Shown here: piece by piece, positions 891 through 15,647 of the stretch
Numbering within the stretch: the stretch's first letter is position 1
How the letters are laid out: each line of letters starts with the position of its first letter
IMG/VR virus record: IMGVR_UViG_3300044998_001320
From: an uncultured virus (IMG/VR IMGVR_UViG_3300044998_001320)
Taxonomy: Duplodnaviria; Heunggongvirae; Uroviricota; Caudoviricetes
Reading direction: 5' to 3' (one strand)
Length of the DNA: 20,000 nucleotides
Notes under the pieces: model-generated
What the model saw: the letters and a program-made list of their open reading frames with translations, nothing else
Database searches by the model: none
Told to the model about the DNA's origin: nothing
Program-made: the position numbers and the translations under genes

Positions 891-3800
891 TTAGGAATTT
901 GTTGATGGCGGGGCTTGTGCTTGTAGTGCAGCGATAAAGGATTCCAGTGTAGTGATCCTTTCGGTCAAGCTGTTAACAAGCGCCATTAAGTCAACATCGC
1001 CGATGAAGATTCCTTTGTTGGCTGCTAAGCGAATCGCGCCGTCAGCTACTGTCACCTCGGCATCCCTAGTTTTGCCCTGAGCATCTGCGAAGCTGGATAG
1101 TGACGCCGCCCCTCGGGCTAGTTCAAGTCCAGCGCCGCCCAGTCCTGGTGCACGACCCTCAAGCGATCGCATGGACATTTTGCCCAGGGTATTGAGGACG
1201 CCCCCCGCCTCACCCAACCCTAGTTCACCAAAGGGGGTTTTGATTCCAGCCTTGCCCAGCCCTGCGAACACCCCTGCTCTTCCCAGAGGGCCAATCAGCG
1301 CTCCCGTCGTTTTTTTGATCAGGATCTTGGCCCCGCGTTCCCGCAAGTCGGTCAAGATTTCTGCCGCGTGCTTGCGAACTTCAACGACTGCCCCTTTGTG
1401 CTCAATCGGGAGTCCATTCAGCAGACCGTTGAATTGCCCCAGCATCTTGTTCAGGTCACCGCTCACTAACCCACTGATTGCCCCCATCGCCTTGGGGAGG
1501 AACTCCTGGGCCATAGCGTTAGCTGAAGGCAACTGCCCCGCCCTTAGCCAATCTCCCAGGGGCTTGCCATCGATGACCTGATGAGCTAGGTTTCCCGCTC
1601 CTGAGAATTGTGTTACCTGAGATAAAGCGGCGATCGCCTCAGAAGTTTGCCCTTTGCCGATCGCCCCTATTGCCTGAGTCAGAGGCGAAATCATTCCCAA
1701 GTTGCCTTGGATCCTAGACAAGGTGTCTACGGATTTACTTGACAGGGAGGACATGGCCAACCCCACCAGCCCCTGGAGCTGGTCGTTGATTGGTAGCTGT
1801 CCTGTCGCCGCTGCCAGTAGCTGCTCCGGCTTTAGGTTGTTCTGGATCAAGTCCGGCAATAACTGCTCTAATTGCTTAGCGATCGGGGGTGCGTCGGCGG
1901 GCAAGATGCTGGGGCGATTAGCAGTGATTGGCGATTTCGTCGTCGCCACCGTGCCCTGCCCTGGTTTAATCACCGCCCCCGCGGCCGGGTCGTCCAGTGC
2001 CCGATAGAATGGACTGTTTGGATCAACTGGCGGAGTCGGAATCGCTGATCCTAGCTTGGATCCACCCGCGCGGTAGATTTCCGGGTTGAACTCTGGAGGG
2101 GGTTCAAATTCCGCCAAAATCGCTGCATCTGAGATTGCAGATCCTAAAGACTGAGGCAGATCACTGATCAGGGGCTGTGGCGCACTTCCCGCCCCCTCCC
2201 CAGTTGCCCCAGCCACTTGAAACAACTCAATATCTCCGATCGCGGATCCAACTACCGCGAAATCGTCGGGGGCAAACTCTGATCGCTGCTCCGGTGGGAG
2301 CCGGTCGTATAGGGCCCGCGCCAGTGGAATCTTGACCGTTGCCGGGTCATTCCAGTAAATCCCCTGCTCCCGAGGCCCGGCGTTGGCCGACTCGTAAGAG
2401 TCCAGTCGTTCCTCGCGTGTTGGTGGCGTGATCGGCCCATTGTTGCCGCCTCCCACCAACACCGCGCCGTCAGATCCCGCGCCCGCCAACCCAAGGGCAT
2501 CACCAAGAGATGCAGCCGGAGTAACTGGCGTCGTCCTGATCACCCCAGCCGGATCCACCGCCGTCAGTCCGTTAGCGATCGATTGCTCAAGCCCCGCCAT
2601 GAAATCCGTGGGGGCCTCAGCGGCGGGCAAGATCTCGCGGATCTTCCCTAGGGTCTCACCTAGCCCCAACCCAAACACGTTCTGCACCGCCTCAAATTGA
2701 TCACCCAAAGCCAAGCTGATCAACGACTCGGTTTGACGATCAGGCTGGCGCTGCAGAGCAATCGCCTCCGCAAAAATCCGCTCAGTCACCTCAGGAGTGA
2801 GCTGAGATTTAAGCGACGTCGGGAGCTGCGGCAAGATTTGAGCGACGGCAGTGACGGGGTCGTGGCTCTCAAAAGCTTGACGGGTAAGAGGAATCAGGGA
2901 TTGCACCGGAGCAATCGCATCTAGCTGCGGCCCCAGCAATTGCCCCACCTGAAGCGGGTTAGCACTAGACAACTTGCCGAACACCTCGATCGCCTCAGGC
3001 AGCCCGCCTAACTTGCCCGTCAAGTCCTGAAGTTGGTTGCGTAGCGCCTTGAATCCCTGCTCCACGAAATCACCGGATTCTGGCAACCCAATCCCCTTGG
3101 CAAGTTGATTGAATTTGTCCAAGGCTGGGGCAATCGAGCCGATCAACCCCTTGGCTTTTTGCAGAAGCTGGCTGATTTCATCAAGGGGGCCCTCGATCCG
3201 CCCCACTGCCTCATCAAGCTTCAGCGTGGACTTGGCAGCGCTGGTCAGGTCAATCCGCCCCTTGGGGTCAATTATCTGCTTAGCTCCAGCCTGGTTACCC
3301 TGAGCAACCTCTCCCTCAGGGCTATGGGTTGTGTAACCTTGGGGATTCTGGACGCTGGCCGTGCCATCCTCCCGCAGACTCAAGGTAGCGCTATTGGCAG
3401 TGGTCTGGGTAATATTACCTGCGCCATCAACCAGTTGAGTCACGCCATGGGGATAGGCATCGACACGACTTTGGTTTGCGTCGTTCTTGGCGGTGATCAC
3501 ACCATTGCGCGTGGCACTGCCATAAATTTCGTTCTCCCGATCAAACACCGGGTGAGGAGGCTCTTGGCGATTGACTACGCAGCCCAGCAAGAACAGATTG
3601 TTGATATCACCCAACATCGCCAGGCAGATTACCTGCGCCCCTTTTCTCAGTAATCGGTAGGATCCACCCGTGGTGTTACCCTCGGTAGTCAACTCGATCG
3701 GCCAGGCCCAACCGTCGTTGCTGTTTGGCAACACCTGGTTTTCGCTAAAAAGCTTACTGGTGACGCGGATCCGTCCAAGCTTTTCGGGGTCATCCAAATC

Positions 3801-3902
3801 AACAATCTCACAGGGAATTGCGCCAAAAACAAATCCCTCTTCTAGATGGGTGGCCCTGGCTTCGGGCAGGGTGGGACGGGTGATGCGATCAAAGGAGGAC
3901 AT
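891..3902 (-). CDS. Phage baseplate assembly protein V / gp5-VgrG-like central spike with a large internal insertion
   Basis: N-terminal gp5 OB-fold-like pattern (CEIVDLDDPEKLGRIRV...WAW...GGSYRLLRKGAQV...GDINNLFLLGCV), then Gly/Thr/Asp-rich beta-helix-like repeats and a C-terminal coiled coil. ATG at 3902 preferred over the TTG at 3911 in the ORF track. Confidence 0.75.
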   Translation of the reverse strand: MSSFDRITRPTLPEARATHLEEGFVFGAIPCEIVDLDDPEKLGRIRVTSKLFSENQVLPNSNDGWAWPIELTTEGNTTGGSYRLLRKGAQVICLAMLGDINNLFLLGCVVNRQEPPHPVFDRENEIYGSATRNGVITAKNDANQSRVDAYPHGVTQLVDGAGNITQTTANSATLSLREDGTASVQNPQGYTTHSPEGEVAQGNQAGAKQIIDPKGRIDLTSAAKSTLKLDEAVGRIEGPLDEISQLLQKAKGLIGSIAPALDKFNQLAKGIGLPESGDFVEQGFKALRNQLQDLTGKLGGLPEAIEVFGKLSSANPLQVGQLLGPQLDAIAPVQSLIPLTRQAFESHDPVTAVAQILPQLPTSLKSQLTPEVTERIFAEAIALQRQPDRQTESLISLALGDQFEAVQNVFGLGLGETLGKIREILPAAEAPTDFMAGLEQSIANGLTAVDPAGVIRTTPVTPAASLGDALGLAGAGSDGAVLVGGGNNGPITPPTREERLDSYESANAGPREQGIYWNDPATVKIPLARALYDRLPPEQRSEFAPDDFAVVGSAIGDIELFQVAGATGEGAGSAPQPLISDLPQSLGSAISDAAILAEFEPPPEFNPEIYRAGGSKLGSAIPTPPVDPNSPFYRALDDPAAGAVIKPGQGTVATTKSPITANRPSILPADAPPIAKQLEQLLPDLIQNNLKPEQLLAAATGQLPINDQLQGLVGLAMSSLSSKSVDTLSRIQGNLGMISPLTQAIGAIGKGQTSEAIAALSQVTQFSGAGNLAHQVIDGKPLGDWLRAGQLPSANAMAQEFLPKAMGAISGLVSGDLNKMLGQFNGLLNGLPIEHKGAVVEVRKHAAEILTDLRERGAKILIKKTTGALIGPLGRAGVFAGLGKAGIKTPFGELGLGEAGGVLNTLGKMSMRSLEGRAPGLGGAGLELARGAASLSSFADAQGKTRDAEVTVADGAIRLAANKGIFIGDVDLMALVNSLTERITTLESFIAALQAQAPPSTNS

Positions 3903-3970
3903 AAAAAACAAGCACGACTAGCCAGTGCCTAGCCGCGCTAACGGGGTTGAAACGGTTGCTGTTCTTTTAA

Positions 3971-4568: not shown

Positions 4569-4886
4569 ATGAAAGATAAGCTAAGCCTATACAAAAGTCA
4601 CCGTCGGCGATTCAGCGCCGCTCCCGCCCCTGATCCAGTTGGCGGTTTTTTCTCTTGGCTGCTGGGAGATCCCTGTTTTCTGGAGAACTACACAAAAGAC
4701 CTAATCGAGCGTCATCTTGGCAGCCTGTGCGATGTAAGTCCTCGCACGATTAGGCGCTGGGGGTCTCGGTTCGAGAAAATCCCCCCTCATTACGCACGGC
4801 TGCTTCATCTTCATCGACGCTGTCTGGAATTGGAGTTAAGGTGTGCTGCTTTGCAACGGCAATCCACCGCTCAACGAGCTAGTTGA
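4569..4886 (+). CDS. Helix-turn-helix (Cro/XRE-like) DNA-binding protein
   Basis: LGSLCDVSPRTIRRW...KIPPHYARLL is an HTH-type signature; short C-terminal coiled coil. Stop overlaps the start of the next gene. Confidence 0.65.
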   Translation: MKDKLSLYKSHRRRFSAAPAPDPVGGFFSWLLGDPCFLENYTKDLIERHLGSLCDVSPRTIRRWGSRFEKIPPHYARLLHLHRRCLELELRCAALQRQSTAQRAS

Positions 4887-5929
4887 CTATGAATGGCTCC
4901 GCTGACGTAATCGCCCAGGCTTTGAAGAGCGGGGTTACCCCCGAGGAGATTCGCCGCGCTGCCAATGGCAACCCTGAGTTGTTGACGGCCCTGCAGGTGC
5001 AGGTTGATCGACTCCGGCTAGAGTCGGTTGGGGAATGCAACCCGATCGCTCAGCTAGCCCGGTCTCCCGGGCACACCCTATTTGCCTCAAAAACCGGAGC
5101 AGGCAAGACCTCCTTTCTGCAAGCCTTGATTGCAGATGCTTGCCTTTATTTCCCAGAATGCGCTTGGTCGATTGTCACACCGAAGAACGACAATTTTTTT
5201 GGCTGGCCGACGATCCAAGGGCAGCGCGTCGTTACCTATCTCGACTTGCCGGAATCCCCCAGCGACACGACCTGGGTGGATGTATTGCACCGAGAAGTGA
5301 GCCGAGTTTACCGAGTCTTTGTCCGGCGTAATCGTTTTGACAAGTCGGCGATCCGGGCGGGAGGACAGCCCTCGGACTGGCCCCCTGTATTCCTGGTGAT
5401 CGACGAATACTTTGCTCTCTATTCCTTGCTGAAACGACTGCCCAAAATTGAGCAAGAACAGGATGATGGCAAGGGAGGGTTAAAGCGAGTCAAAGTTCCC
5501 GATGAGCGCGGCGGAGAGATCACCCAGATGTTGCAATACATCGTGCTCATGGGGCGATCTCTCGGGGTTTATCTGATCCTTTCAGGGCAGTCCGCTAATT
5601 GTGAAGAAATTGGGTTCAGTAGTGACGGGCGCCGTAACTTCCGAATTGTGGCCTTGGGAAAACGGCAAACTCACACGGGGACTCCCGTTGGCTACGAATG
5701 CTTGTTTGGAGCCCTGAACAATTCTTTCTTGTTTGCAGATCGGGAGCAGGTTGCACAAATCAAGCGCCAAATCAAGTTTGTGATTGCCCAAGCTCAAGCG
5801 ATGGGCGATCTCCCGGTAGCCCTGATCAATGGGGGGCAAACCCGGTTGTGGATCGTCCCTGATCTGCGAGAAATCGCTCGCGCCCCCATCCCGTTGCCGA
5901 AATCGGTGGAGATGGCTCGTGTTCAGTAA
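4883..5929 (+). CDS. FtsK/HerA-superfamily P-loop ATPase (TraB/coupling-protein-like), no TM anchor
   Basis: Walker A ASKTGAGKT, Walker B FLVIDE, and the GRSLGVYLILSGQ motif (Arg finger plus conserved Gln) typical of FtsK/HerA pumps. Confidence 0.85.
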   Translation: MTMNGSADVIAQALKSGVTPEEIRRAANGNPELLTALQVQVDRLRLESVGECNPIAQLARSPGHTLFASKTGAGKTSFLQALIADACLYFPECAWSIVTPKNDNFFGWPTIQGQRVVTYLDLPESPSDTTWVDVLHREVSRVYRVFVRRNRFDKSAIRAGGQPSDWPPVFLVIDEYFALYSLLKRLPKIEQEQDDGKGGLKRVKVPDERGGEITQMLQYIVLMGRSLGVYLILSGQSANCEEIGFSSDGRRNFRIVALGKRQTHTGTPVGYECLFGALNNSFLFADREQVAQIKRQIKFVIAQAQAMGDLPVALINGGQTRLWIVPDLREIARAPIPLPKSVEMARVQ

Positions 5930-5950
5930 TTCCCTCACCCCAACGAAACC

Positions 5951-6520
5951 ATGTCTGTCTCACAAGACGGCGATCGCCATGACCGACTGATCTACCTGAC
6001 CGCCCCAATTGCCCCTGCCATCTGCGGGGGCTTGGCTTGGTGGGGCAACGCCGAACCCCAAGCGATCGTTGCAATCGGAATCAGCGCGATCACAGCGCAC
6101 CTGTTTGGCGGACTGTACTTGAGTCCTGATCTTGACTTAGCCGGGACGATCCGCTGCAAGTCCTGGTGGCGCTGGGAACATTCTGCCAAGCTGGGCTGGG
6201 TCTGGATGCACTATCCCCGCTTGGTGGGCTGTCATCGATCGCGCTGGTCTCACGCCCCCCTACTGGGCAGCGCCACCCGCCTGCTCTACCTGATGGCGAT
6301 TCTCCCCTTTCTGCTCCCGGTCTTTGTTCGGCGTTGGCGCAGATTGATCGCTGTGATTGCCCTAGTCAGCGTTGCCCTTAGCTATACCCCGTGGTGGTCT
6401 TTGTTGGCAGCGTTGGTCGTCGGCATCGAGACCAGCGCGATCGCCCACTACACCCAAGATGGTACTGTACTTGGCGGATGGCATCGTCCCCGCCGCTCAA
6501 AACCTAGACGCAAGCCTTAA
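5951..6520 (+). CDS. DUF2227-like putative metal-binding membrane protein
   Basis: Motifs HDR, LSPDLD, SWWRW...LGWVW, HRSRWSHAPLLGS, RLLYL and a C-terminal HxxxD, with several hydrophobic helices. Confidence 0.8.
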   Translation: MSVSQDGDRHDRLIYLTAPIAPAICGGLAWWGNAEPQAIVAIGISAITAHLFGGLYLSPDLDLAGTIRCKSWWRWEHSAKLGWVWMHYPRLVGCHRSRWSHAPLLGSATRLLYLMAILPFLLPVFVRRWRRLIAVIALVSVALSYTPWWSLLAALVVGIETSAIAHYTQDGTVLGGWHRPRRSKPRRKP

Positions 6521-6538
6521 CTCCCACGCTATCAACCC

Positions 6539-6580
6539 AAAGCCCTGTCATTGATGTTTTCGATGACAGGGCTTTTGTTT
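6539..6580 (+). terminator. Intrinsic terminator
   Basis: 16-bp stem AAAGCCCTGTCATTGA / TCGATGACAGGGCTTT (one G-U pair), 5-nt loop, followed by TGTTT. Confidence 0.8.
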
Positions 6581-6630
6581 CGGACAAATTGACCTAAAGA
6601 TTTGCGCTTGAATCGACAAAATGCGAACGT

Positions 6631-6697
6631 AGGAAACACCAAGGAAACACCAAAGAAACACCACCAGCTAAGCACAGGATGTTTCCTTGGTGTTTCC
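6631..6697. repeat. Three tandem 11-bp repeats plus a perfect 18-bp inverted copy; putative protein-binding site
   Basis: AGGAAACACCA (6631), AGGAAACACCA (6642), AAGAAACACCA (6653). 6680-6697 TGTTTCCTTGGTGTTTCC is the exact reverse complement of 6632-6649. Confidence 0.85.
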
Positions 6698-6757
6698 CCT
6701 TAGCACAAGAGGAGCGGCCAAATTGTCCAAACGACTTCACTGAACGTGGCGGGCGTC

Positions 6758-7111
6758 ATGCCCGTTGCATACCTCAACCCTGAACGTGTGCGTAACCGAT
6801 ACAAGAACCCCAAGACCGGGCGAACCATAAGCCGCAAAACCTTTGCCCGTTGGCGGCACATCCTCTGCATCCCGGTCGCCAGTCAAGGTAGTAACCAATA
6901 CAGCGACACCAGCGCCTGGGTTTCAACCGAAAACGTCTTCCTGTTGGACGCTTGGTACTACCTGGTTATTAGCCCCCACGGGCCTGGCATGAACCGAACC
7001 GAATTCGTTGATCGTTTCTGGGAGTGGGACGACACCGATCGCACCCCCCAAGAGCGAATCGCAGACTATCTGACCGAGCACAAACTCACAATTCCCGACC
7101 TATGCGCCTGA
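6758..7111 (+). CDS. Putative MerR/Xis-like HTH DNA-binding protein
   Basis: ISRKTFARWRHILCI resembles a MerR/excisionase recognition helix. First gene after the repeat site. ATG at 6758 (ORF track uses GTG at 6746). Confidence 0.5.
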   Translation: MPVAYLNPERVRNRYKNPKTGRTISRKTFARWRHILCIPVASQGSNQYSDTSAWVSTENVFLLDAWYYLVISPHGPGMNRTEFVDRFWEWDDTDRTPQERIADYLTEHKLTIPDLCA

Positions 7112-7683
7112 ACCAAGTTGCTAGCCAGTTAAAAATTGCGCCCGCCAAGATCCAAGAGGCGATTGCCGCCCTCCATCAACGCAGGCACCCAGCATTTCCC
7201 AGTTCCACCGTCGCCGACCTTAGTGAGGTGCAAGTCGAGGCGATCGCTCAGTATCTTCGCAACCCTCAACAAGAGCAAAGTACCGGTGCGCAACCCGGCT
7301 CAGCCCACGACGTTGGCGGGGCCTTTGGGGTGATCAGTCAGCAGTTCAATGAGGCCGCCGCTACCGCCGGTGTGCAAATCGCCCGTGAAGCCGTTCGGAC
7401 TGCCCAAGCTACAGCCACTCACCTATTGGTCAACTACTCGCCCGATGAAATCGATGATCTAGCCCTTCGTCAACTGGGGCTAGGCGCGATCGAAGACAAC
7501 GGAGCCAGTCAAGGGATGGCTAGCGTTTTGTCCAGCCTGGGAAAGCCGCGGAGGGCGATGCTCGACTTCACCCCCAATCACAGCAATCCAATCCTGTCGC
7601 TAGCAGGGGTTTGTCCGCCAACCCAGCAAGCCTTGTCCGCCAGCAGCGACAACGCTACTGTCGAAGCTGGCTCGGATTCCTAG
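7102..7683 (+). CDS. Hypothetical protein with N-terminal IF2N/HTH-like motif; contains a -1 slippery site
   Basis: ATG at 7102 overlaps the upstream stop. MRLNQVASQLKIAPAKIQEAI resembles an IF2-N/HTH pattern. G GGA AAG at 7539-7545. Confidence 0.65.
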   Translation: MRLNQVASQLKIAPAKIQEAIAALHQRRHPAFPSSTVADLSEVQVEAIAQYLRNPQQEQSTGAQPGSAHDVGGAFGVISQQFNEAAATAGVQIAREAVRTAQATATHLLVNYSPDEIDDLALRQLGLGAIEDNGASQGMASVLSSLGKPRRAMLDFTPNHSNPILSLAGVCPPTQQALSASSDNATVEAGSDS

Positions 7684-8015
7684 CGGCGATCGCCCTAGTC
7701 AGCGGGGTAGGCAGCTGGCTGCTTCGCCTACCCCCCACCACGATCCTGGTCGCCCTGACGGCCGGGGCGGTGGGACGCGAAATCGCCGACGGCAATCTTC
7801 CTGTGTTGCGTGTCGACCTCTCAGAGCCGGAGGTGGTTGATGCCGTAGTCGAGTCCTCTGAATCACCTTCGGGCATTCCCGCGATCAAGGCAGGACAAGC
7901 AGAACCCTCGTTGCTAGATCTCAGCACGATCGCCGCCTGGCTGCCCTCCAATAACCCCGGAAGGTCTTCCCTGGCTTCACCTCCGCCCAATCCCTTTGGT
8001 GAATACAGTGACTAA
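7545..8015 (+). CDS. Membrane-anchor ORF, probably expressed as a -1 frameshift extension of the 7102 gene (track start TTG 7611)
   Basis: Frame open 7524-8015 with no ATG. Two hydrophobic segments (WLGFLAAIALVSGVGSWLL; TILVALTAGAVG). Lies in the -1 frame relative to the GGGAAAG site. Confidence 0.6.
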   Translation, partial: AAEGDARLHPQSQQSNPVASRGLSANPASLVRQQRQRYCRSWLGFLAAIALVSGVGSWLLRLPPTTILVALTAGAVGREIADGNLPVLRVDLSEPEVVDAVVESSESPSGIPAIKAGQAEPSLLDLSTIAAWLPSNNPGRSSLASPPPNPFGEYSD

Positions 8016-8415
8016 ATTCAAAAAACTCCCTCACCCCTGGAAAGCCGCAGTCAGCACCTTTGCTGCCATCTTGATTGCCACCCCCTTCGTTAGCACAGCC
8101 GGAATCTTTGCCTGGATCATTCAAGGCTCCATAACTCGGATCGCTGATTGTGTCAAGACCGAGACCCGCGAAACTTGTGAAGTCTTGAATCGCTGGGATT
8201 CCGTTAGCTTTGCCAACTTGATCGCTTACACCTTTGGTGGCGGGGTCTACGCGGGATTGATTTTGGGCGTGATCAGTGGAAGCCTTTCGTTCCGCGCCGC
8301 CCAGCCCCGCATATTCCGGCAGGTTTCACTCGCCACCCAGCAGCGCTTGCAACGCGCAATCGAAGAAGGAGGACTAAACCTTGAAGATATCTTAGAAAGT
8401 GCAGGGTATAAGTGA
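7996..8415 (+). CDS. Hypothetical membrane protein (2 TM)
   Basis: Two long hydrophobic helices flanking a Cys-Cys loop. Overlaps both neighbours; start may be GTG at 8008. Confidence 0.7.
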   Translation: MVNTVTKFKKLPHPWKAAVSTFAAILIATPFVSTAGIFAWIIQGSITRIADCVKTETRETCEVLNRWDSVSFANLIAYTFGGGVYAGLILGVISGSLSFRAAQPRIFRQVSLATQQRLQRAIEEGGLNLEDILESAGYK

Positions 8416-9248
8416 TGACGAGAACCTCATCCCCCACGACCGGCCGAGCGGTCAAGCATCCCACCCCATCCCTACTTAAGCAAAATCAACCTAGTTGGAC
8501 CCTCCAGAAGATCTGGCACAAGTATCCCGTTGCGGTCGTCCTGTCCGCGATCCTTGTGCCGGGCTGCGCGATCAGCCTCTGGCTTGGGCGTCCCCAGTCC
8601 CAGCAGGTGGAGGTCACGGCGGTCAACCATGGTGAAGTCCCTCCCGCCCCCACCAACCCAGTGGAGGACTCCCGGGTGATCGCCCAGCAGCTGCGTGCCC
8701 AGTACGAGCAGACGATGCGGACAATGCACGCTCGCCTTCAGTCCGATATCGGCAACGCGATCGCCCAACGAGCCAACGATTACTTTGAATACGCAAGGTC
8801 TGTCGAACAGGCTGATCGCCGCAAGGCTCAACAGGAAAACCGTAACCCATCCTTTGATGGGACGGCTGGGGTGTTGACCCACCTCCTAGAGGTCAAGCGG
8901 CAGGAGTTGATTGTTGCACGGCAAGCACAAAAACCCGAGGAGGTAAACAAGATACTTCTTGAAACCTACGCCTGCATGGTGGCCCTGGAGGCGGCGTTCA
9001 ACCCTGCCAGTGTCAAGCCTTTCCAAATTCAAACCACGGTTGACATCTCCGATCCGACTCGGCGGTTCTCAGCAATCATTACAGCCCAAGCGGTGCAGGG
9101 GCTTGTGAACGACGTGCGAGCAAGCGGCGAGTCGGCTAAACAGGCCTATGAAGCGGCAATCGCTGCCCAACAGAAGGCTAGTCAGCAATCCCACGTGTCA
9201 CCCCCTACTGCCCAACCCGTGTCTTTTGAGAGCGGAGGTATGCCATGA
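8412..9248 (+). CDS. Single-TM protein with long helical/coiled-coil region
   Basis: TM YPVAVVLSAILVPGCAISLWL followed by Q/A/E-rich helices. GTGA and ATGA overlaps with neighbours. Confidence 0.75.
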   Translation: MMTRTSSPTTGRAVKHPTPSLLKQNQPSWTLQKIWHKYPVAVVLSAILVPGCAISLWLGRPQSQQVEVTAVNHGEVPPAPTNPVEDSRVIAQQLRAQYEQTMRTMHARLQSDIGNAIAQRANDYFEYARSVEQADRRKAQQENRNPSFDGTAGVLTHLLEVKRQELIVARQAQKPEEVNKILLETYACMVALEAAFNPASVKPFQIQTTVDISDPTRRFSAIITAQAVQGLVNDVRASGESAKQAYEAAIAAQQKASQQSHVSPPTAQPVSFESGGMP

Positions 9249-9844
9249 AATTTCGCCCTGTTCACTTGCTGGCACTGCCGGTCATGGCCATGGCCCCCCT
9301 CCAGTTTGCGGCCAGTCGTTACCAGCCTACCAAGTGTGGAGCAGAAGCCAACCCCGTTTTCATCAACCAAGGGGGGCGACAGTATGAGGTTACGCGGGTG
9401 ATCGATGTGCCGCAACCTAACCCCCTCGCCCTGTGGCACTGGCTGTCTGGGTTTGCCTCCCTGGTAGCTCCGCCGATCGTGGTGGCCCTGAACGCAATGC
9501 CTGGGATGCGTAGCGGAAACAACGATAGTCGCGAGGAGGATCGCTCTTTTGCCACCTCAGTCATTGGACAAGGTTTGGATCCTTTCGTAGTCGACAGCGA
9601 TGACGAGGAAGAGGAGGCATCGGATCCCCTGCAGGCTGACGATCTTGACGACTTCCCGATCACATCTCCCTCTTCGGCTGTCGTGACCACCTCAGATCCG
9701 AGCACTGCTGATTGGATGTCGGCGATCATTGCTGTTGCCCAACGTCGGGCTGCATCACCTCCCGCCTCGATTGCCTCAGATAATCAGGACGATCCTCTGG
9801 ACGACCTTGATCTTGACCTTGACCTTGCTAAACCCCTCTCATGA
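9245..9844 (+). CDS. Membrane protein with very acidic C-terminal tail
   Basis: Signal-like N-terminus, second hydrophobic helix, D/E-rich tail (DSDDEEEE, DDPLDDLDLDLDL). ATGA overlaps; GGAGG RBS upstream. Confidence 0.7.
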   Translation: MKFRPVHLLALPVMAMAPLQFAASRYQPTKCGAEANPVFINQGGRQYEVTRVIDVPQPNPLALWHWLSGFASLVAPPIVVALNAMPGMRSGNNDSREEDRSFATSVIGQGLDPFVVDSDDEEEEASDPLQADDLDDFPITSPSSAVVTTSDPSTADWMSAIIAVAQRRAASPPASIASDNQDDPLDDLDLDLDLAKPLS

Positions 9845-10323
9845 GCGACGACGACTTTCACTCCCCCCGGAGTCCTAAATCTATGAGCAGCAGTCCACAT
9901 GACAAGTCTCGATCATTCGTTGAGGCAATCGAACGAGGGCATCGACTCACCTACCGCGACCTGATTGGACTTCCCGTGACCTTGAGCGCGCAAACCTGGG
10001 CCATCCATTGGCCTCGATGCATCGCGTGGATAGGCGTGATTGCAACCAGTGGCTCATTGTTTTCCATGTGCACCGCGTCAATCACAGGGCAGGCAATTCA
10101 ACCAAGCGGCGTGCATGACTTTATCAACCCCGTGGTCTGGACAAGCGGGGTGGGGGCCGGGATTAACGTGGGGGTTCGTGGATTCAACCAAACCATCGTA
10201 ACCCCTACCAACAATGCACTGAGATCAGGGGAGGGTATTAACTGGGCACAGCCTCAGACGGGCCGCGACTCTACTCTAGTCGTGCCACCCGCCCCCAATC
10301 GGTCTGTTGCACCCGTCCCCTAA
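9841..10323 (+). CDS. Hypothetical membrane protein
   Basis: Hydrophobic segment CIAWIGVIATSGSLFSMC; ATGA overlap with the upstream gene. Confidence 0.65.
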   Translation: MSDDDFHSPRSPKSMSSSPHDKSRSFVEAIERGHRLTYRDLIGLPVTLSAQTWAIHWPRCIAWIGVIATSGSLFSMCTASITGQAIQPSGVHDFINPVVWTSGVGAGINVGVRGFNQTIVTPTNNALRSGEGINWAQPQTGRDSTLVVPPAPNRSVAPVP

Positions 10324-10325
10324 CC

Positions 10326-10919
10326 ATGATTGGATTACCACCGATTACAAAGACAGTCCTGACGTTGGGGCTGGTTGTTTGGGCAATCGGGTCGGTTAAA
10401 AGCGGCGATCCGCGCACCCCCGATCTTGTCTTTGTTGGATCCTTGGCTAAGCAAGGAGCTGTAGCTTCAGTCAACGCCGCCCAGAAAGCCTGGAAGCTGG
10501 TTCCCACAACCAACCCAGCAACCGCCCAGCAATCAGCCCCTCAAGACCCCCAGCCCCGATCGTCAGCCACCAATTTTTTTCGTCAGCCGACTGTGACTGA
10601 ACCGGCCCGGCTCATACCACCATCACTAGTCCAGTCGCTGGGATGCAACGACATGCCTGGGGAGGCTGTTCCCTTGAATCAACAGACCCTGGTTGCCTGG
10701 TTAACCCGAGCAGGGGGGTATCCTCGTGCATCCTTGGCAGCCCTGTATGAACCACTCCCCGGACTGTCTACACCTCCTGTCTGTCTCAACGCTGATCGCA
10801 CCCGCGCCATCTGGCTTGTCACCTTTGGAGGCGGGCAGTACCAGAAACTCGTGGCCCATTTTGACCCCAATCAAAACTACCTGCGCCACGACCCGCTTCA
10901 ACCCGTAACCTTTCCCTAG
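10326..10919 (+). CDS. N-terminally anchored hypothetical protein
   Basis: TM VLTLGLVVWAIG, a P/Q/T-rich linker, and a small C-terminal domain with two Cys. Starts 2 nt after the previous stop. Confidence 0.7.
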   Translation: MIGLPPITKTVLTLGLVVWAIGSVKSGDPRTPDLVFVGSLAKQGAVASVNAAQKAWKLVPTTNPATAQQSAPQDPQPRSSATNFFRQPTVTEPARLIPPSLVQSLGCNDMPGEAVPLNQQTLVAWLTRAGGYPRASLAALYEPLPGLSTPPVCLNADRTRAIWLVTFGGGQYQKLVAHFDPNQNYLRHDPLQPVTFP

Positions 10920-10932
10920 ATTTGGTCAATCT

Positions 10933-11436
10933 ATGAAATCGTTACTCACCACCCTGTTGATTACTGGTGGAGTAATTTGGGCTGCCTTTTGGCTCATGAA
11001 CAGCCCTCTCACTTACACCGTCGACCGACAACTACCCAGCCGGGTCTCCCTCGAAGCAATCCAATCTCCCGAGGGCGTCGCCCCTAATAATCTACCTACC
11101 GTGATCGCCGAACGAGTCCTGAACGTCGAAGTTGTACCGGGACGCAGCCTTAGCGAGGGAGTCCTCTTGAAGGGGGAGCAGTCCGTAATCTACTACGCCC
11201 CCTTCGATGGCTCGATTACCGCAATCCCTAGGGGCATTCGTTACGAATCCCCTGAGTTATTTGGCTCGATTGAACTCATCTATGGAAACGTCTTAGCCGC
11301 GCCGGGGCCGATTCAATCGCGCATGTCCCTAGCCGCAGGGCAATCGGTTCAGGCGATTCGACTTGACTCAAATGGGCAGCCGATTCCTCTTGAGCGACCG
11401 CTGCTGGAGGCTTTGCAGACAGGAGTGGCCCCATGA
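10933..11436 (+). CDS. Membrane-anchored protein, possibly a degenerate M23/hybrid-motif fold
   Basis: N-terminal TM; YAPFDGSI resembles the 'YAPxDGxV' segment of M23/duplicated-hybrid folds. No histidines, so the M23 Zn ligands are absent. Confidence 0.55.
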   Translation: MKSLLTTLLITGGVIWAAFWLMNSPLTYTVDRQLPSRVSLEAIQSPEGVAPNNLPTVIAERVLNVEVVPGRSLSEGVLLKGEQSVIYYAPFDGSITAIPRGIRYESPELFGSIELIYGNVLAAPGPIQSRMSLAAGQSVQAIRLDSNGQPIPLERPLLEALQTGVAP

Positions 11437-12221
11437 AGTTCTTTGACGACTTGATAATCGCGTCCTGTGTTGTCTCTGTTGCGACCCTATGGGTCACGAG
11501 CCGCACCCCGCGCATCGCCACCGCGCCGACCCAAGCTGCCACCGCGCCGATCACTGCGCATCGCCTTGACCTTGACCCCACCATTGACCGGTGGTTTGCT
11601 TCCCCCAACTCGATCGGTGCGGTGGCGATCGGAATGGCTGAGGGTAACTACTGGCTGCAGATCGCCTCCAGCCCAACGGGACAGAGGGTGGTCGTCAAAA
11701 CAACCCGACTCTACGCAGGGCATGTGGATCCAGGCAACTTTGTGCAGAACTACGGTTTCTGTTCTGATCAAGGGCGATCGGGTGGAGACCTACCCAAGGC
11801 TGACCAGGGTTGCCTTGAACGGATACGCAGTAAGATCCCTGAGGCGATCGCTGATCTCAGATCCGCCGGGATTGACCCCATAGCAGATCCCGAGGCTCTT
11901 TTCAACACCCTAGACCTCCACAATCAGGGCAGCCCCATCCACTCGCGGTGGTTTCCCAGATCCCTCGCCAAAGCAAGAGCGGCGAGGAATCAAGGAATTG
12001 AAACAATCGCCCACGCCCGTACCGCCGCCTTCTACCAAAACGGAGATCCCACCACTGGACATAACCTGGCCATCGGACTACTGGGTATTTGCCGCCGAGA
12101 AAATCGTAGGGTTAGCGACTTTGCCTGCGTCTACGGCGATCAACTTCGACGAGCTAGGGAGATCAGCAAAGCGATCAGGATCTTCGGTCAAGCAGGTACA
12201 ACAGAGGGAGAGCGCGAATGA
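11433..12221 (+). CDS. Putative lysozyme-like muramidase with N-terminal anchor
   Basis: TM, then AIGMAEGN...YAGHVDPGN...NYG (Glu after helix, then Y-x-x-H-x-D-P-G, reminiscent of lysozyme-type active sites), DLHNQ and DQLRR motifs. Function inferred. Confidence 0.5.
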   Translation: MKFFDDLIIASCVVSVATLWVTSRTPRIATAPTQAATAPITAHRLDLDPTIDRWFASPNSIGAVAIGMAEGNYWLQIASSPTGQRVVVKTTRLYAGHVDPGNFVQNYGFCSDQGRSGGDLPKADQGCLERIRSKIPEAIADLRSAGIDPIADPEALFNTLDLHNQGSPIHSRWFPRSLAKARAARNQGIETIAHARTAAFYQNGDPTTGHNLAIGLLGICRRENRRVSDFACVYGDQLRRAREISKAIRIFGQAGTTEGERE

Positions 12222-12967
12222 GTCGCAGTATCGCCATTGACTGGGCGAGTGTCGTCGTTGTCGCAGCGGTGGCTGCAGCGATCGGGATAATAAGCGCGCC
12301 CAGTGGGTCTCCCCTCTTCTCGTTAGGAACCCCCGCGGCCACAGCCCAGCCCAGTGACGACCAGAGCAGCCCCCTTGGGCGACGGGTGATAGCCGCCATG
12401 AAGTCACGGGGCTACGAAATCGACCCCGTTTTCAATATCGTCGCCATCTCTGGGATGAACCCTGATGGTACACGCAACGATAACCACCCTGACCAGTGGA
12501 ATGACCTCGTGCTAATTGTCAAGCCCGACGGCACAGTATTGCACATTGCGCAAGCAACGACCGAGCCAGCCTGGGGAATCACGCAGAAGCCGATCGTCCC
12601 ACCCGGTGCTGCCCAGCTTGCCTTTGGACAGCACCCCAGGGCTTACCAAATTGGAATTCACCAAGGATCCAGTCATCACGAAGCGCTCGTGCAAACCGGA
12701 GGCCCCGTGACGATCCTACGCGACGTGAATCGCAATGGACGACGCGATGCTGACGATCTGAGGGTTTCGGGTTTCTTTGGAATCAACTGGCATCGAGCAA
12801 CGACCACCCCCCTGAAAACGATCCAGGGCTATTCAGCAGGCTGCATCGTCACCAACGACATCACCAAACACTTGTCCTTTATGCGGATCCTCAAGACCCA
12901 TCCTGGCTACCAACGTGATCGCCTGTTTCGGTTCACGGTGACGCTCTTGAACGGCGCGGATACCTAG
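12218..12967 (+). CDS. Putative L,D-transpeptidase-like (YkuD-related) peptidoglycan enzyme / endolysin-like protein with N-terminal anchor
   Basis: FGINWH...SAGC catalytic His/Cys motif, plus WND, ATTEP, GAAQLAFGQ, ALVQ, RDVNRNG. Hydrophobic N-terminus. Confidence 0.7.
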   Translation: MSRSIAIDWASVVVVAAVAAAIGIISAPSGSPLFSLGTPAATAQPSDDQSSPLGRRVIAAMKSRGYEIDPVFNIVAISGMNPDGTRNDNHPDQWNDLVLIVKPDGTVLHIAQATTEPAWGITQKPIVPPGAAQLAFGQHPRAYQIGIHQGSSHHEALVQTGGPVTILRDVNRNGRRDADDLRVSGFFGINWHRATTTPLKTIQGYSAGCIVTNDITKHLSFMRILKTHPGYQRDRLFRFTVTLLNGADT

Positions 12968-12997
12968 GCTCGTGTGATTACCCACCCCGTCCGCACC

Positions 12998-13141
12998 ATG
13001 ATGCCCCGCCTCCTCAAAGCGATCACCCTCGCCTTGCTTTGGTATGTCTTGCTCTGCTCGATAGACGCACCATCAACGCCACCCCCTCACCCCACGACAA
13101 GCTATGACCACTTCTCCCAGCATCCTCAACCGCGCCATTGA
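12998..13141 (+). CDS. Small single-TM, Pro-rich protein (not in ORF track)
   Basis: Manual translation: MMPRLLKAITLALLWYVLLCSIDAPSTPPPHPTTSYDHFSQHPQPRH (47 aa). Fills the gap after the cell-wall enzyme gene. Confidence 0.45.
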   Translation: MMPRLLKAITLALLWYVLLCSIDAPSTPPPHPTTSYDHFSQHPQPRH

Positions 13142-13754
13142 CTGGCTAGGCCGATACAGTCGGCCCGTCGCCTTCGGTGATCGAGTGCGGTTTCGGCGAC
13201 GCGAGTGGATCCTTGGGACTCGACTGGATCTTTACCTGATAGGTTGGGGCAACGATCATCCGCCCTTCCCTACGCCCAAAGACCTTGATCATTGGCTAGT
13301 CCTTCTGTCCAGCCAAGGGGGTACCCCTCCCTTGCCCGCCTCGTTCTTGGATCGGTACAATCACCACCACTTCGTTACTGACCCCACCAAGCCAGCCGAT
13401 CGGCAACCCGCCCCTCGCTATCCCCTGATCTGCCCCGTCAATGGCGAAGTGGACTGGGCAGACGAGGACGAACTGCAATTCTTGTCTGCCGGGCGCTACC
13501 TTGACTTGCGCGATAGTGAGGGACGGACAATCTCCCTGCCCATCGGACTCATCCACCGGATTCGAGGTCGCGACGATCTTGGGCTGTACCAAGTCACCTT
13601 CCTAGGTGGCGCTGAGTTGTGGCTGGATCGCCACGCCCCCCATGATATGCACTGGACACCCTACACTGATGAGGCGATCGCTGCCCTTGACCAACTGATG
13701 AGTGATCGGGGGCAGCGGATCGCCGTTGCGCTAAGCAGTGTAGGTTCGCGCTAA
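13104..13754 (+). CDS. Hypothetical protein
   Basis: 216-aa ATG ORF co-oriented with the operon and followed by a terminator. No recognisable motif. Confidence 0.65.
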   Translation: MTTSPSILNRAIDWLGRYSRPVAFGDRVRFRRREWILGTRLDLYLIGWGNDHPPFPTPKDLDHWLVLLSSQGGTPPLPASFLDRYNHHHFVTDPTKPADRQPAPRYPLICPVNGEVDWADEDELQFLSAGRYLDLRDSEGRTISLPIGLIHRIRGRDDLGLYQVTFLGGAELWLDRHAPHDMHWTPYTDEAIAALDQLMSDRGQRIAVALSSVGSR

Positions 13755-13797
13755 AGTAGCGGTATCATTGACAGCCTTCTCCTTGTGTTTTGTCGAG

Positions 13798-13833
13798 AAA
13801 CGATTTCCCGGTAATGGGCAATCGTTTTTTTTT
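13798..13833 (+). terminator. Intrinsic terminator
   Basis: AAACGATTTCCC-GGTAAT-GGGCAATCGTTT hairpin (one mismatch) running into a T9 tract. Confidence 0.7.
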
Positions 13834-13892
13834 GGTCGCCAGTTATTGTCTGATTTGAGTGCAAAATTAAACAATCAGCACAAGCACTCAAT

Positions 13893-15647
13893 ATGAACAC
13901 CACAAACGCAAGCGCAAAGGATTCCTGTTACAACGAGTTTCGTCGCTGGCTATGGGACTTAGCCGAAGGCTACATGATTGACCTTGATCGACCTGGACGA
14001 GACGTGATCGACCTGCTGGCAAATGCGATCACCCACCAGCTCCATGGGCGATCAGCGGGGCGCTCTCACATCGAAAGAGTCTTAGCCCCTGTGTTTGGCG
14101 TTACCAGGGAAAACCTACTGGACGCGGTGCTCATGGATGACGATGAATCGCAGATCCAGTACCCCGTCATTGAGGATACAGAGGGAGTACTGGAGGGTCT
14201 CACCCCGTCTCAGAGGTCGGTCGCAATCGAGGTCGTCAACTGGCTACAGACGGGCAAGGTCAACGGCATTCCAACCAGGCAAGCCATCCTCAGGGGGTAC
14301 GCCGGGATGGGCAAGACCTATGTCGCGGGGGCGATCACCCGCCTAGCGCTCAAGTCCGGGATGTTTGACCGCAGCGAGGTCATCCTCACCGCACCAAGTC
14401 ATCAGGCTCGCAAGGTGATCCGCAACACCTTCTACTACCACTGGAATCTCGCGTTGGACACCTGTACCTTTGCAGGGCTGCTAGGGCTGACTCCGGACAT
14501 CGACGAAGAGACTGGAGAAGAAATCTACATTCAGAAGGGGGAGATCACGCCTCGGATCAGCGACAAATTTCTGGTAATTGCAGACGAAGCGAGTCAATGG
14601 GGGCGGCAATTGCAGTCTCATTTGGATGGGAATATTAATGGCGCAACCATCCTCTGGCTGGGGGATGACGCTCAACTTCCACCCGTGGAGGGCAGAAAAC
14701 GCGATCGTCCAGGCAGTCCGCTGCTGTTCGATCTGAGTTCCTTCGCCGACGACAACGACTCCACCTCGCCCATCTTCAACCTACCCGGATGGGAACTCAA
14801 GGAGGTGGTTCGCTACAGCGGGGCGATCGCGCAACTCGCTAACGACATCCGCAAAAACCTAGATTGCCCCCGGATGCCAATCGCCGAAATCCAGGAATAT
14901 GCTAAGCAGGATGACACCGTGGTGCTGTTGAGCCGGCAGGACTGGGAGTCTGAGCTACTTCAATCCTTTAAGCGAGCGCAAAACCCTGACCAGGTGCGGG
15001 CTTTGTCCTGGCGCAACAAGCGCGTACAGGAAATCAACCGAGTTGTCCATGAGTTCCTGCACGGGGAATCTGCCGCCCCCTACTGCCGCGGCGAGTCCCT
15101 GGTTGCTCTCTCCCCTTGCAAGTCGCGAGAGAAGATTGTCCGCATAAGACAGGGGAAGGAGATTGAATCCATGGTTGAAGTCACGATCCTGCAAAACGGC
15201 GAACAAGCCCTGATCAAGAGCGCCTGCAAGGTTGTGACCGAGGAGGGGTTGGTTGCTTGGCAGTTGAACTGCACGAAGACTCCCGACGACGATGGGCGAA
15301 CAGACATAACCCTCCTCGTGATCGACGAGTCCTGCCAAGCAGAACTCAATCGTCGGCTATCTAACCTGGCTCGCCAAGCCAAGGCAGAGAGCAAGGAAAA
15401 CAAGGGCAAGTCAAAATTCCAGAAATGGGGGCCTTACTTTGAACTCCGCAATCGGTTTCATAGGGTTTCCCTGGCTTATGCCCTGACCGTCCACAAGGCC
15501 CAAGGGTCAACATTTGAAGAGGTCTACGTCGACCTAGACGACATTGGTCAAAACAAGGACAAGGACAAGGTCAAGGATCGCAACCGCATGATCTACACCG
15601 CGATCACCCGTTGCTCCCGTCGGGCGGTCTTGACCTATAACCAGTAA
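13893..15647 (+). CDS. SF1B Dda/RecD-like ATP-dependent DNA helicase
   Basis: Motifs GYAGMGKT, TAPSHQA, IADEASQ, GDDAQLPPV, LKEVVRY, AYALTVHKAQGSTF, YTAITR. Confidence 0.92.
   Translation: MNTTNASAKDSCYNEFRRWLWDLAEGYMIDLDRPGRDVIDLLANAITHQLHGRSAGRSHIERVLAPVFGVTRENLLDAVLMDDDESQIQYPVIEDTEGVLEGLTPSQRSVAIEVVNWLQTGKVNGIPTRQAILRGYAGMGKTYVAGAITRLALKSGMFDRSEVILTAPSHQARKVIRNTFYYHWNLALDTCTFAGLLGLTPDIDEETGEEIYIQKGEITPRISDKFLVIADEASQWGRQLQSHLDGNINGATILWLGDDAQLPPVEGRKRDRPGSPLLFDLSSFADDNDSTSPIFNLPGWELKEVVRYSGAIAQLANDIRKNLDCPRMPIAEIQEYAKQDDTVVLLSRQDWESELLQSFKRAQNPDQVRALSWRNKRVQEINRVVHEFLHGESAAPYCRGESLVALSPCKSREKIVRIRQGKEIESMVEVTILQNGEQALIKSACKVVTEEGLVAWQLNCTKTPDDDGRTDITLLVIDESCQAELNRRLSNLARQAKAESKENKGKSKFQKWGPYFELRNRFHRVSLAYALTVHKAQGSTFEEVYVDLDDIGQNKDKDKVKDRNRMIYTAITRCSRRAVLTYNQ

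Follow-up and report, generated by a model that had tools for sequence, protein, structure and literature searches.

A slippery G GGA AAG heptamer at the junction of two conserved genes in a putative cyanobacterial phage-like element

Introduction

How is a conserved reading frame translated that has no ATG codon, overlaps the upstream gene in the -1 frame and is preceded by a slippery heptamer? This question is raised by one junction of the window, the whole 20,000-nt stretch of DNA analysed here. For this junction a lambda-type -1 frameshift that tethers a DNA-binding-like protein to the membrane had been proposed from the letters alone (referred to below as the original prediction).

Two explanations are compared. 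Positions 7102–7683 would encode a soluble protein of 193 aa, and the -1-frame ORF would be the first in a run of small membrane-protein genes, translated from its own start. We give an even chance to such a pair of separate genes with their own initiation, in which the heptamer is incidental and slipping at G GGA AAG would be a minor by-product at most. Alternatively, the -1 frame is reached by a programmed frameshift, for which the chance is put at somewhat below even. Some ribosomes would slip at G GGA AAG, where the tRNAs on GGA and AAG would re-pair on GGG and AAA, and would run to 8015 to yield a protein of 304 aa.

Layout of the two reading frames

The features of the overlap are as follows.

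7102–7683, plus strand: upstream gene, P0001, 193 aa, soluble, no known family; three-helix N-terminal domain and low-confidence tail (homologues, AlphaFold)
7521–7523, plus strand: final stop (TAG) in the -1 frame ahead of its long open part; eight stops at 7122–7521, none until 8013
7539–7545, plus strand: G GGA AAG heptamer in codons Leu146-Gly147-Lys148; LGK invariant in 18/18 sequences, heptamer identical in the variant contigs
7545–7683, plus strand: stretch open in both frames; the 0 frame encodes the P0001 tail, which is partly conserved

In the frame of ATG 7102 the letters of the window read CTG GGA AAG at 7537–7545, which places G GGA AAG in the X XXY YYZ phase of a slippery heptamer, as originally described. 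The 0 frame terminates at TAG 7681–7683, and 45 sense codons lie 3' of the heptamer. The -1 frame is open from 7524 to TAA 8013–8015 (163 codons, no Met) and thus becomes open five codons ahead of the heptamer. The phase of the heptamer and this opening speak for a frameshift. Counting ATG, GTG and TTG, the start-capable codons of the -1 frame are TTG 7611 and, next, GTG 7770; the reported absence of ATG from a frame open from just past 7521–7523 to 8015 holds. The slip product computes to 148 + 156 = 304 aa with the junction ...LGK/AAEGDAR, in agreement with the proposed ~304-aa protein and junction peptide ...LGKAAEGDAR. Read in the -1 frame, 7545–7683 comprises a stretch rich in Gln, Ser and Pro, an Arg-rich cluster and the beginning of a hydrophobic segment.

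Two independent full-length contigs from public runs (X9 and X11) together show 21 single-letter differences over 6700–8500 and no indels, and the heptamer is free of differences. Runs X12 and X13 contributed short fragments outside the junction. Since X9 and X11 have no indels, the frame arrangement is not an assembly error. An assembly indel that split one gene is rejected on the same ground and because the homologues share the 0-frame end. Transcriptional slippage is unlikely because a long homopolymer run is absent.

Contig X9 has four differences within 27 nt (7480–7506), each silent in the 0 frame. One of its differences, 7506 C>T, introduces an extra -1-frame stop 5' of the heptamer.

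The upstream protein

Homologues of P0001 fall into five clusters with 52–99% identity and lengths of 191–198 aa. They have the identical Met start and about the same end, which supports ATG 7102 as the start. Comparison of the protein sequences shows LGK to be invariant in 18 of 18 family members (52–100% identity). This invariance argues for a frameshift; it is, however, an invariance of LGK at the protein level, with which the heptamer is possible everywhere. Residue 149 is only Pro, Arg, Gln or His (codons CNN), so the -1 codon stays GCN (Ala). This restriction disfavors separate initiation. On the other hand, Arg150, Leu154 and Phe156 are invariant 3' of the heptamer and the length is kept at 191–198 aa. 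The conserved residues in the 45 further codons count against a frameshift. The frameshift site of lambda is near the 3' end of gene g according to PMC5009743.

AlphaFold predicts a confident three-helix domain for residues 1–55 of P0001 (pLDDT about 80), followed by a long helix of moderate confidence. The pLDDT is below 50 for residues 126–145 and 147–193. No Pfam family was found for P0001, and chaperone families were likewise not matched. The best Pfam E-values were 0.17 (HTH_35 and HTH_1), each in one of six members. Two PHROGs matched with E = 0.006 and 0.007, both families of unknown function. At E ≤ 0.001 Foldseek found nothing in the PDB, and its best compact hit was the DNA-binding domain of RacA (E = 0.64, probability 0.6). 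Structure rows of the ESM Atlas reached a TM of at most 0.36, and no solved structure was matched below E = 0.4 in a profile search. The HTH-like character attributed to the upstream protein was therefore not confirmed by Pfam or Foldseek, and its description as DNA-binding-like may serve as a lead.

Searching phages and plasmids with P0001 by tblastn gave no match. Viral, metagenome and genome contigs were scanned with P0001, with alignments of its family (A1) and of the downstream proteins (A2) and with two neighbour proteins, and no true relative turned up. The sole locus returned by one of the viral contig scans was rejected as a chance word match (NYSPDEID inside a protein of 1,957 aa). 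Look-alike clusters of P0001 in the ESM Atlas consist of cyanobacterial hypothetical proteins of 188–209 aa (95–175 members, scores 0.90–0.91). An additional cluster (score 0.88) has IF2_N in 10% of its members. A wider P0001 family may exist in cyanobacterial genomes.

The downstream membrane protein

The downstream reading frame, its membrane segment and the following gene are located as follows.

7611–8015, plus strand: -1 ORF read from TTG, 134 aa; basic N-terminus, hydrophobic segment and conserved C-terminal domain ending in NPFG (homologues)
7668–7724, plus strand: the sole clear transmembrane segment (WLGFLAAIALVSGVGSWLL), straddling the 0-frame stop; Kyte-Doolittle 19-residue mean 1.87
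7999–8415, plus strand: next gene, membrane protein; probable start GTG 7999 or GTG 8008, either of which lies within the final codons of the -1 ORF (GTGACTAA)

Judged by its homologues and codon usage, the -1 ORF is a genuine gene that is conserved and encodes a predicted small membrane protein. Its codon-usage score is positive from ~7650 to 7950 and amounts to +0.17 for 7683–8012. Inside the overlap the scores are all between -0.07 and +0.04 and the frames are indistinguishable. Six of the seven variant sites at 7749–7997 are silent in the frame of the -1 ORF. These sites cannot choose the strand, because an antisense ORF (7655–7990, minus strand, 111 aa) has the same wobble positions. The antisense ORF is rejected: its codon score is -0.05 versus +0.17, and all homologues are called in the plus frame. 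Homologues of the -1 ORF include the window's own call P0019 (81 aa from GTG 7770), P0020–P0022 (111–113 aa) and P0023–P0026 (81–86 aa), with the common motifs GRExAD, LPVLR and NPFG. With P0001 conserved as described above, both genes are real and conserved.

Four Arg residues precede the transmembrane 19-mer. Two hydrophobic helices had been proposed for the -1 frame. One is a clear transmembrane segment, whereas the second reaches a Kyte-Doolittle score of 1.41, below the threshold. In the hydrophobic region, 22 of 30 residues are common to the window and lineage 3, with conservative changes (counted on the alignment), and AGAV is common to the window and lineage 2. Conservation of this region is in favor of a frameshift. 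The lineage-3 protein read from its called Met has a hydropathy maximum of 1.54.

An ESM Atlas search with the TTG-started product yielded scores of at most 0.86, to unrelated reductase fragments. Natural in-frame fusions, which had been suggested as a check, were not found among five clusters in the searched range of 106–338 aa. A search with the -1 ORF against 1.84 billion representatives of any length returned only two proteins, of 81 and 113 aa, and no fusion. The lack of a fused homologue in these searches speaks against a frameshift. Together with a 0 frame that stays coding after the heptamer, it favors separate initiation.

TTG 7996 is lost in X11, where the variant 7997 T>C makes it TCG without changing the product of the -1 ORF; GTG 7999 or GTG 8008 is accordingly the probable start of the next gene.

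Start codons available to the downstream gene

Two further codons of the -1 frame align with starts that were called in other lineages.

7689–7691, plus strand: ATC aligned with the called start of lineage 3 (M of MALVSG); inside a HIP1 site, 5 nt after the 0-frame stop
7770–7772, plus strand: GTG used by gene callers (81-aa P0019; lineages 2 and 4), probably an internal Val; P0025 reads AGAVGRE through

Each -1-frame codon takes its first base from the end of one 0-frame codon and its other two from the beginning of the following one. Hence, for the -1 frame to contain ATG, GTG, TTG or CTG, a 0-frame codon must start with TG, that is Cys, Trp or the stop TGA. By this rule the availability of -1 start codons can be read from protein sequences alone. 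TTG 7611 rests on Cys171. Outside the window's 90% cluster, none of 15 family sequences has a Cys or Trp after LGK; thus, none of the four codons is possible in the overlap of these 15 sequences. As Cys171 is absent outside the window's cluster, TTG cannot be the general start of the family, and among the sequences compared TTG 7611 is confined to the window's lineage. The impossibility of a canonical start in 15 of 15 sequences from other lineages argues for a frameshift and disfavors separate initiation. An overlap of the ATGA type with a TGA stop would demand a second residue starting with A, and no called protein has such a residue.

A start at TTG 7611 gives an overlap of 73 nt. Most junctions of the operon are 4-nt overlaps or short gaps, among which 73 nt would be an outlier, and this also weighs against separate initiation. 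So does the lack of homologue support for any TTG start of the element. In line with the original remark that it lacks a well-spaced RBS, TTG 7611 has no Shine-Dalgarno site. This says little, since a GGAG-like run precedes only some three of the starts listed (by eye).

The called starts vary by lineage and comprise TTG 7611, a Met at the 7689 position, a Met at the Thr79 position and the Val83 codon. That they differ although the membrane region is conserved is a point for a frameshift, under which these lineage-specific start-capable codons would be incidental internal codons. In lineage 3 the called start MALVSG aligns with ATC 7689, which lies 5 nt beyond the upstream stop of the window. 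In lineages 2 and 4 the called start MGRE aligns with GTG 7770 (Val83 codon). One lineage-2 variant is called four codons earlier (MAGAVGRE, with M at the Thr79 position), which shows that the lineage-2 frame is open and conserved 5' of the Val83 codon and that this codon is read as Val. Independent starts in homologues would count against the original prediction. One lineage is called at the 7689-aligned position, which favors separate initiation, whereas lineages 2 and 4 are called from the Val83 codon only. Between 7683 and 7769 none of six Leu codons is TTG and none of three Val codons is GTG (hand count). The chance of this by codon usage is ~0.05, and the lack of such codons is in line with a frameshift.

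Translation from GTG 7770 as annotated, to a soluble protein of 81 aa with the upstream hydrophobic stretch left untranslated, was chosen by gene callers in three lineages (P0019, P0023/P0026, P0024), but it is very improbable given the protein-level conservation of the upstream region with lineages 2 and 3, the positive codon-usage score of this region and the Ala of lineage 3 at the position of GTG 7770. Prodigal disallows same-strand overlaps above 60 nt, and this limit presumably explains why TTG 7611 was not called.

Codon-position changes within the overlap

Positions of change were inferred by parsimony for 18 protein sequences of the P0001 family, and changes at second codon positions were compared with those at first positions. 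Residues 1–148, the single-coding control, gave 37:50 (second versus first). The stretch from the heptamer to TTG (residues 149–170) gave 6:10, which matches the control (Fisher p = 0.74). After TTG (residues 171–193) the ratio was 13:7 (Fisher versus control, p = 0.058). A second position of the 0 frame corresponds to a third position of the -1 frame. The latter ratio therefore suggests that the -1 frame is constrained in residues 171–193, even in lineages that have no possible start in this region.

Variant 7557, the sole variant between heptamer and TTG, is silent in the 0 frame and changes Asp to Asn in the -1 frame. Variant 7661 changes Val to Ala in the 0 frame and is silent in the -1 frame. 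An Arg-Ala/Leu-Val polymorphism of lineage 3 corresponds to two second-position changes. Variant 7661, this polymorphism and the restriction of residue 149 to CNN codons agree with a constrained -1 frame. Signs of -1-frame coding 5' of the 0-frame stop (the straddling membrane segment, the 13:7 ratio, variant 7661 and the lineage-3 polymorphism) are in favor of a frameshift. Separate initiation, in turn, is favored by the ratios of 6:10 between heptamer and TTG and 13:7 after TTG, and by the variants 7557, which changes the -1 frame only, and 7661. The stretch from heptamer to TTG looks single-coding, but a flexible linker would look alike.

Chance expectation and RNA signals

In-phase X XXY YYZ heptamers are common, with 17 in the 5,865 codons of 21 ORFs. 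Of these 17, the heptamer examined here alone precedes a long -1 frame, of 156 codons; the second longest has 66. GGGAAAG is found twice in the window, both strands counted. Given LGK, the probability of CTG or TTG followed by GGA and AAG is ~0.54 x 0.22 x 0.67 = 0.08 by the codon usage of the element. Without selection, the same usage would lead to G GGA AAR at LGK in only about 1 in 10 cases per lineage. When synonymous codons of the 0 frame were resampled, the -1 frame was free of stops from the heptamer to TTG in 0.40 of the trials and from TTG to the 0-frame stop in 0.15. Both this chance openness up to TTG and the lack of -1-frame constraint in the same stretch count against a frameshift. 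Combining 0.08 with 0.40 gives a coincidence of ~0.03. A heptamer with an open frame is expected by chance in about 3 of 100 cases, which is unusual, yet not rare across a large scan, and no proof.

No stimulatory structure was detected 3' of the heptamer in pseudoknot-free folds (z-scores +0.78, +0.12 and -1.29 versus shuffles), in keeping with the reported lack of a strong hairpin. The sole Shine-Dalgarno-like run upstream is AAGGGA (7511–7516, read by eye), ~22 nt before the heptamer. A stimulatory element is not obligatory for a -1 frameshift site. Nevertheless, the absence of a downstream structure counts against a frameshift and, with a coincidence of only ~0.03, favors separate initiation. 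G_GGA_AAG is highly shift-prone in E. coli, as stated in PMC5009743, which argues for a frameshift. According to the same paper, the shiftiness of A AAG needs a single lysine tRNA in the host, a point against it. No tRNA gene is present in the window. A host with tRNA-Lys(UUU) alone would have a shifty A AAG, while tRNA-Lys(CUU) in addition would speak against efficient slipping.

A promoter scan found no promoter-like sites at 6500–8600. A terminator scan around the junction gave one terminator-like site on the minus strand, below chance, and none on the plus strand.

Two separate genes or a frameshifted fusion

For two separate genes, the start codon has to be selected from those available, and we infer that TTG 7611 is the most likely. 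It would yield a protein of 134 aa with a basic N-terminus of 18 residues, a membrane segment and a C-terminal domain beyond. The TTG product is built like those of the next genes, with a short N-terminus, a hydrophobic segment and a domain (by eye), which supports separate genes. Initiation at TTG 7611 itself is tentative, with the chances rather against it. Re-initiation at ATC 7689, just past the upstream stop, is less likely than TTG 7611 and appears improbable. A start at 7689 would cut the sole clear transmembrane segment, since this segment straddles the upstream stop.

If the heptamer is used, the fusion would consist of residues 1–148, a flexible Gln/Ser/Pro-rich linker, the Arg-rich cluster, the membrane segment and the C-terminal domain. 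The anchored form would carry the conserved domain on the far side of the membrane. It would be the first of the run of membrane proteins, which maybe form an envelope-spanning apparatus. Of the membrane-tethering frameshift originally predicted, the anatomy stands. The invariant LGK, the impossibility of a canonical start inside the overlap in other lineages and the varying called starts are new facts in its favor. The usable TTG in the window's lineage, the usable start in lineage 3 and the missing fusion speak against it. The broader claim, that a family of hot-spring cyanobacterial phage-like elements has a conserved G GGA AAG frameshift outside the tail module and makes free and membrane-anchored forms at a set ratio, is possible but falls short of an even chance.

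If this claim is true, recoding in phages would extend beyond tail chaperones and capsid proteins to switching between soluble and membrane-anchored proteins. To our knowledge, no frameshift of such kind has been documented in cyanobacterial viruses. In each lineage, a conserved membrane protein would then be wrongly annotated as a fragment of 81 aa. Without a real frameshift, the locus is a cautionary case, in which heptamer, phase and long open frame come together at the chance level of ~3 in 100.

Comparison with known systems

In same-strand overlaps of the ordinary kind the downstream gene may lie in the -1 frame, as in the ATGA overlaps of this operon. The present locus resembles them in this respect and in having a TTG available, but its overlap is 73 nt instead of the usual 4 nt and its start is not conserved.

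In retroviral gag-pol a long overlap has its slip site at the 5' end, and the 0-frame tail is functional; the system is eukaryotic and depends on a stimulator. The early slip site in a long overlap and the continuing 0-frame tail are shared with the present locus, whereas the proteins are different. The frameshift in E. coli copA, which gives CopA(Z), reportedly truncates a membrane transporter to a soluble chaperone. In both cases a soluble and a membrane-bound protein would come from one gene, but here the shift would add the anchor.

The slippery site of E. coli dnaX (tau/gamma) has flanking stimulators, and the shifted frame stops at once, which makes the shifted product the shorter one. 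At the present locus no stimulator was found and the shifted product would be longer. Similarities to dnaX are a slippery site ending in A AAG (PMC5009743) and two products with a common N-terminus.

In lambda, g-t is expressed by low-level -1 frameshifting with a product ratio of 30:1 (PMC5009743). The heptamer G GGA AAG is identical to that of lambda gpG/gpGT and the -1 ORF likewise lacks an ATG. A minor fusion beside a major short product would be a further likeness if the frameshift is real. In contrast to lambda, the site is 45 codons before the upstream stop, no chaperone family matches and the -1 frame contributes a membrane protein. A scan of the 21 ORFs recognised neither a major tail gene nor a tape-measure gene, which bears out the earlier remark that none is adjacent, and the neighbours are small membrane proteins. 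As only the heptamer is shared and gene position, neighbours and protein family differ, the locus does not belong to the lambda G/GT system. Of the lambda comparison drawn originally, only the identity of the heptamer remains.

The element and its gene neighbourhood

By its gene content, motif composition and source, the element appears to be phage-like, HIP1-rich and of hot-spring cyanobacterial origin. The HIP1 motif is typical of cyanobacteria. Its octamer GCGATCGC is found at 14 sites (e.g. 7240, 7686 and 8757), whereas base composition predicts 0.5. One copy includes ATC 7689. The sequencing runs in which the stretch occurs carry the label of hot-spring or microbial-mat metagenomes, and no RNA runs are listed among them. 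The following genes were assigned outside the junction.

891–3911, minus strand: protein of 1,006 aa with an N-terminal Phage_base_V OB domain (23.9 versus a cut-off of 23.8 bits, borderline); the rest is low-complexity without a family
4883–5929, plus strand: FtsK-like ATPase, below the Pfam cut-off (19.3 versus 24 bits) and with weak PHROGs matches
5951–6520, plus strand: DUF2227 protein
12218–12967, plus strand: protein matching phrog_3000 and an endolysin family

The Phage_base_V gene is 3.2 kb from the junction on the other strand. Other phage-like genes encode a Dda-like helicase, an SNF2 helicase and a ribonucleotide reductase fragment. Searching phage records by tblastn with the ATPase gave no match, and the helicase had matches only below 60% identity.

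The plus-strand genes at 4569–15647 form a tight array, mostly with 4-nt overlaps. Between 7611 and 12967 there are about nine consecutive plus-strand ORFs, nearly all with an N-terminal hydrophobic segment (by eye; hydropathy computed for three). The ATPase and the DUF2227 protein precede this run, and the protein matching phrog_3000 closes it. The run looks like an envelope-spanning apparatus.

The array is interrupted at 6520–6746, 12967–13104 and 13754–13893 by gaps of 136–225 nt in which no long ORF is listed. The 105-aa ORF at 4569–4886 weakly matches MerR (E = 0.0069, below the cut-off) and a PHROG whose annotation is tail assembly protein (E = 0.0029). A TTGA overlap joins this ORF to the ATPase gene, but ATG 4889 may be the true start of the ATPase.
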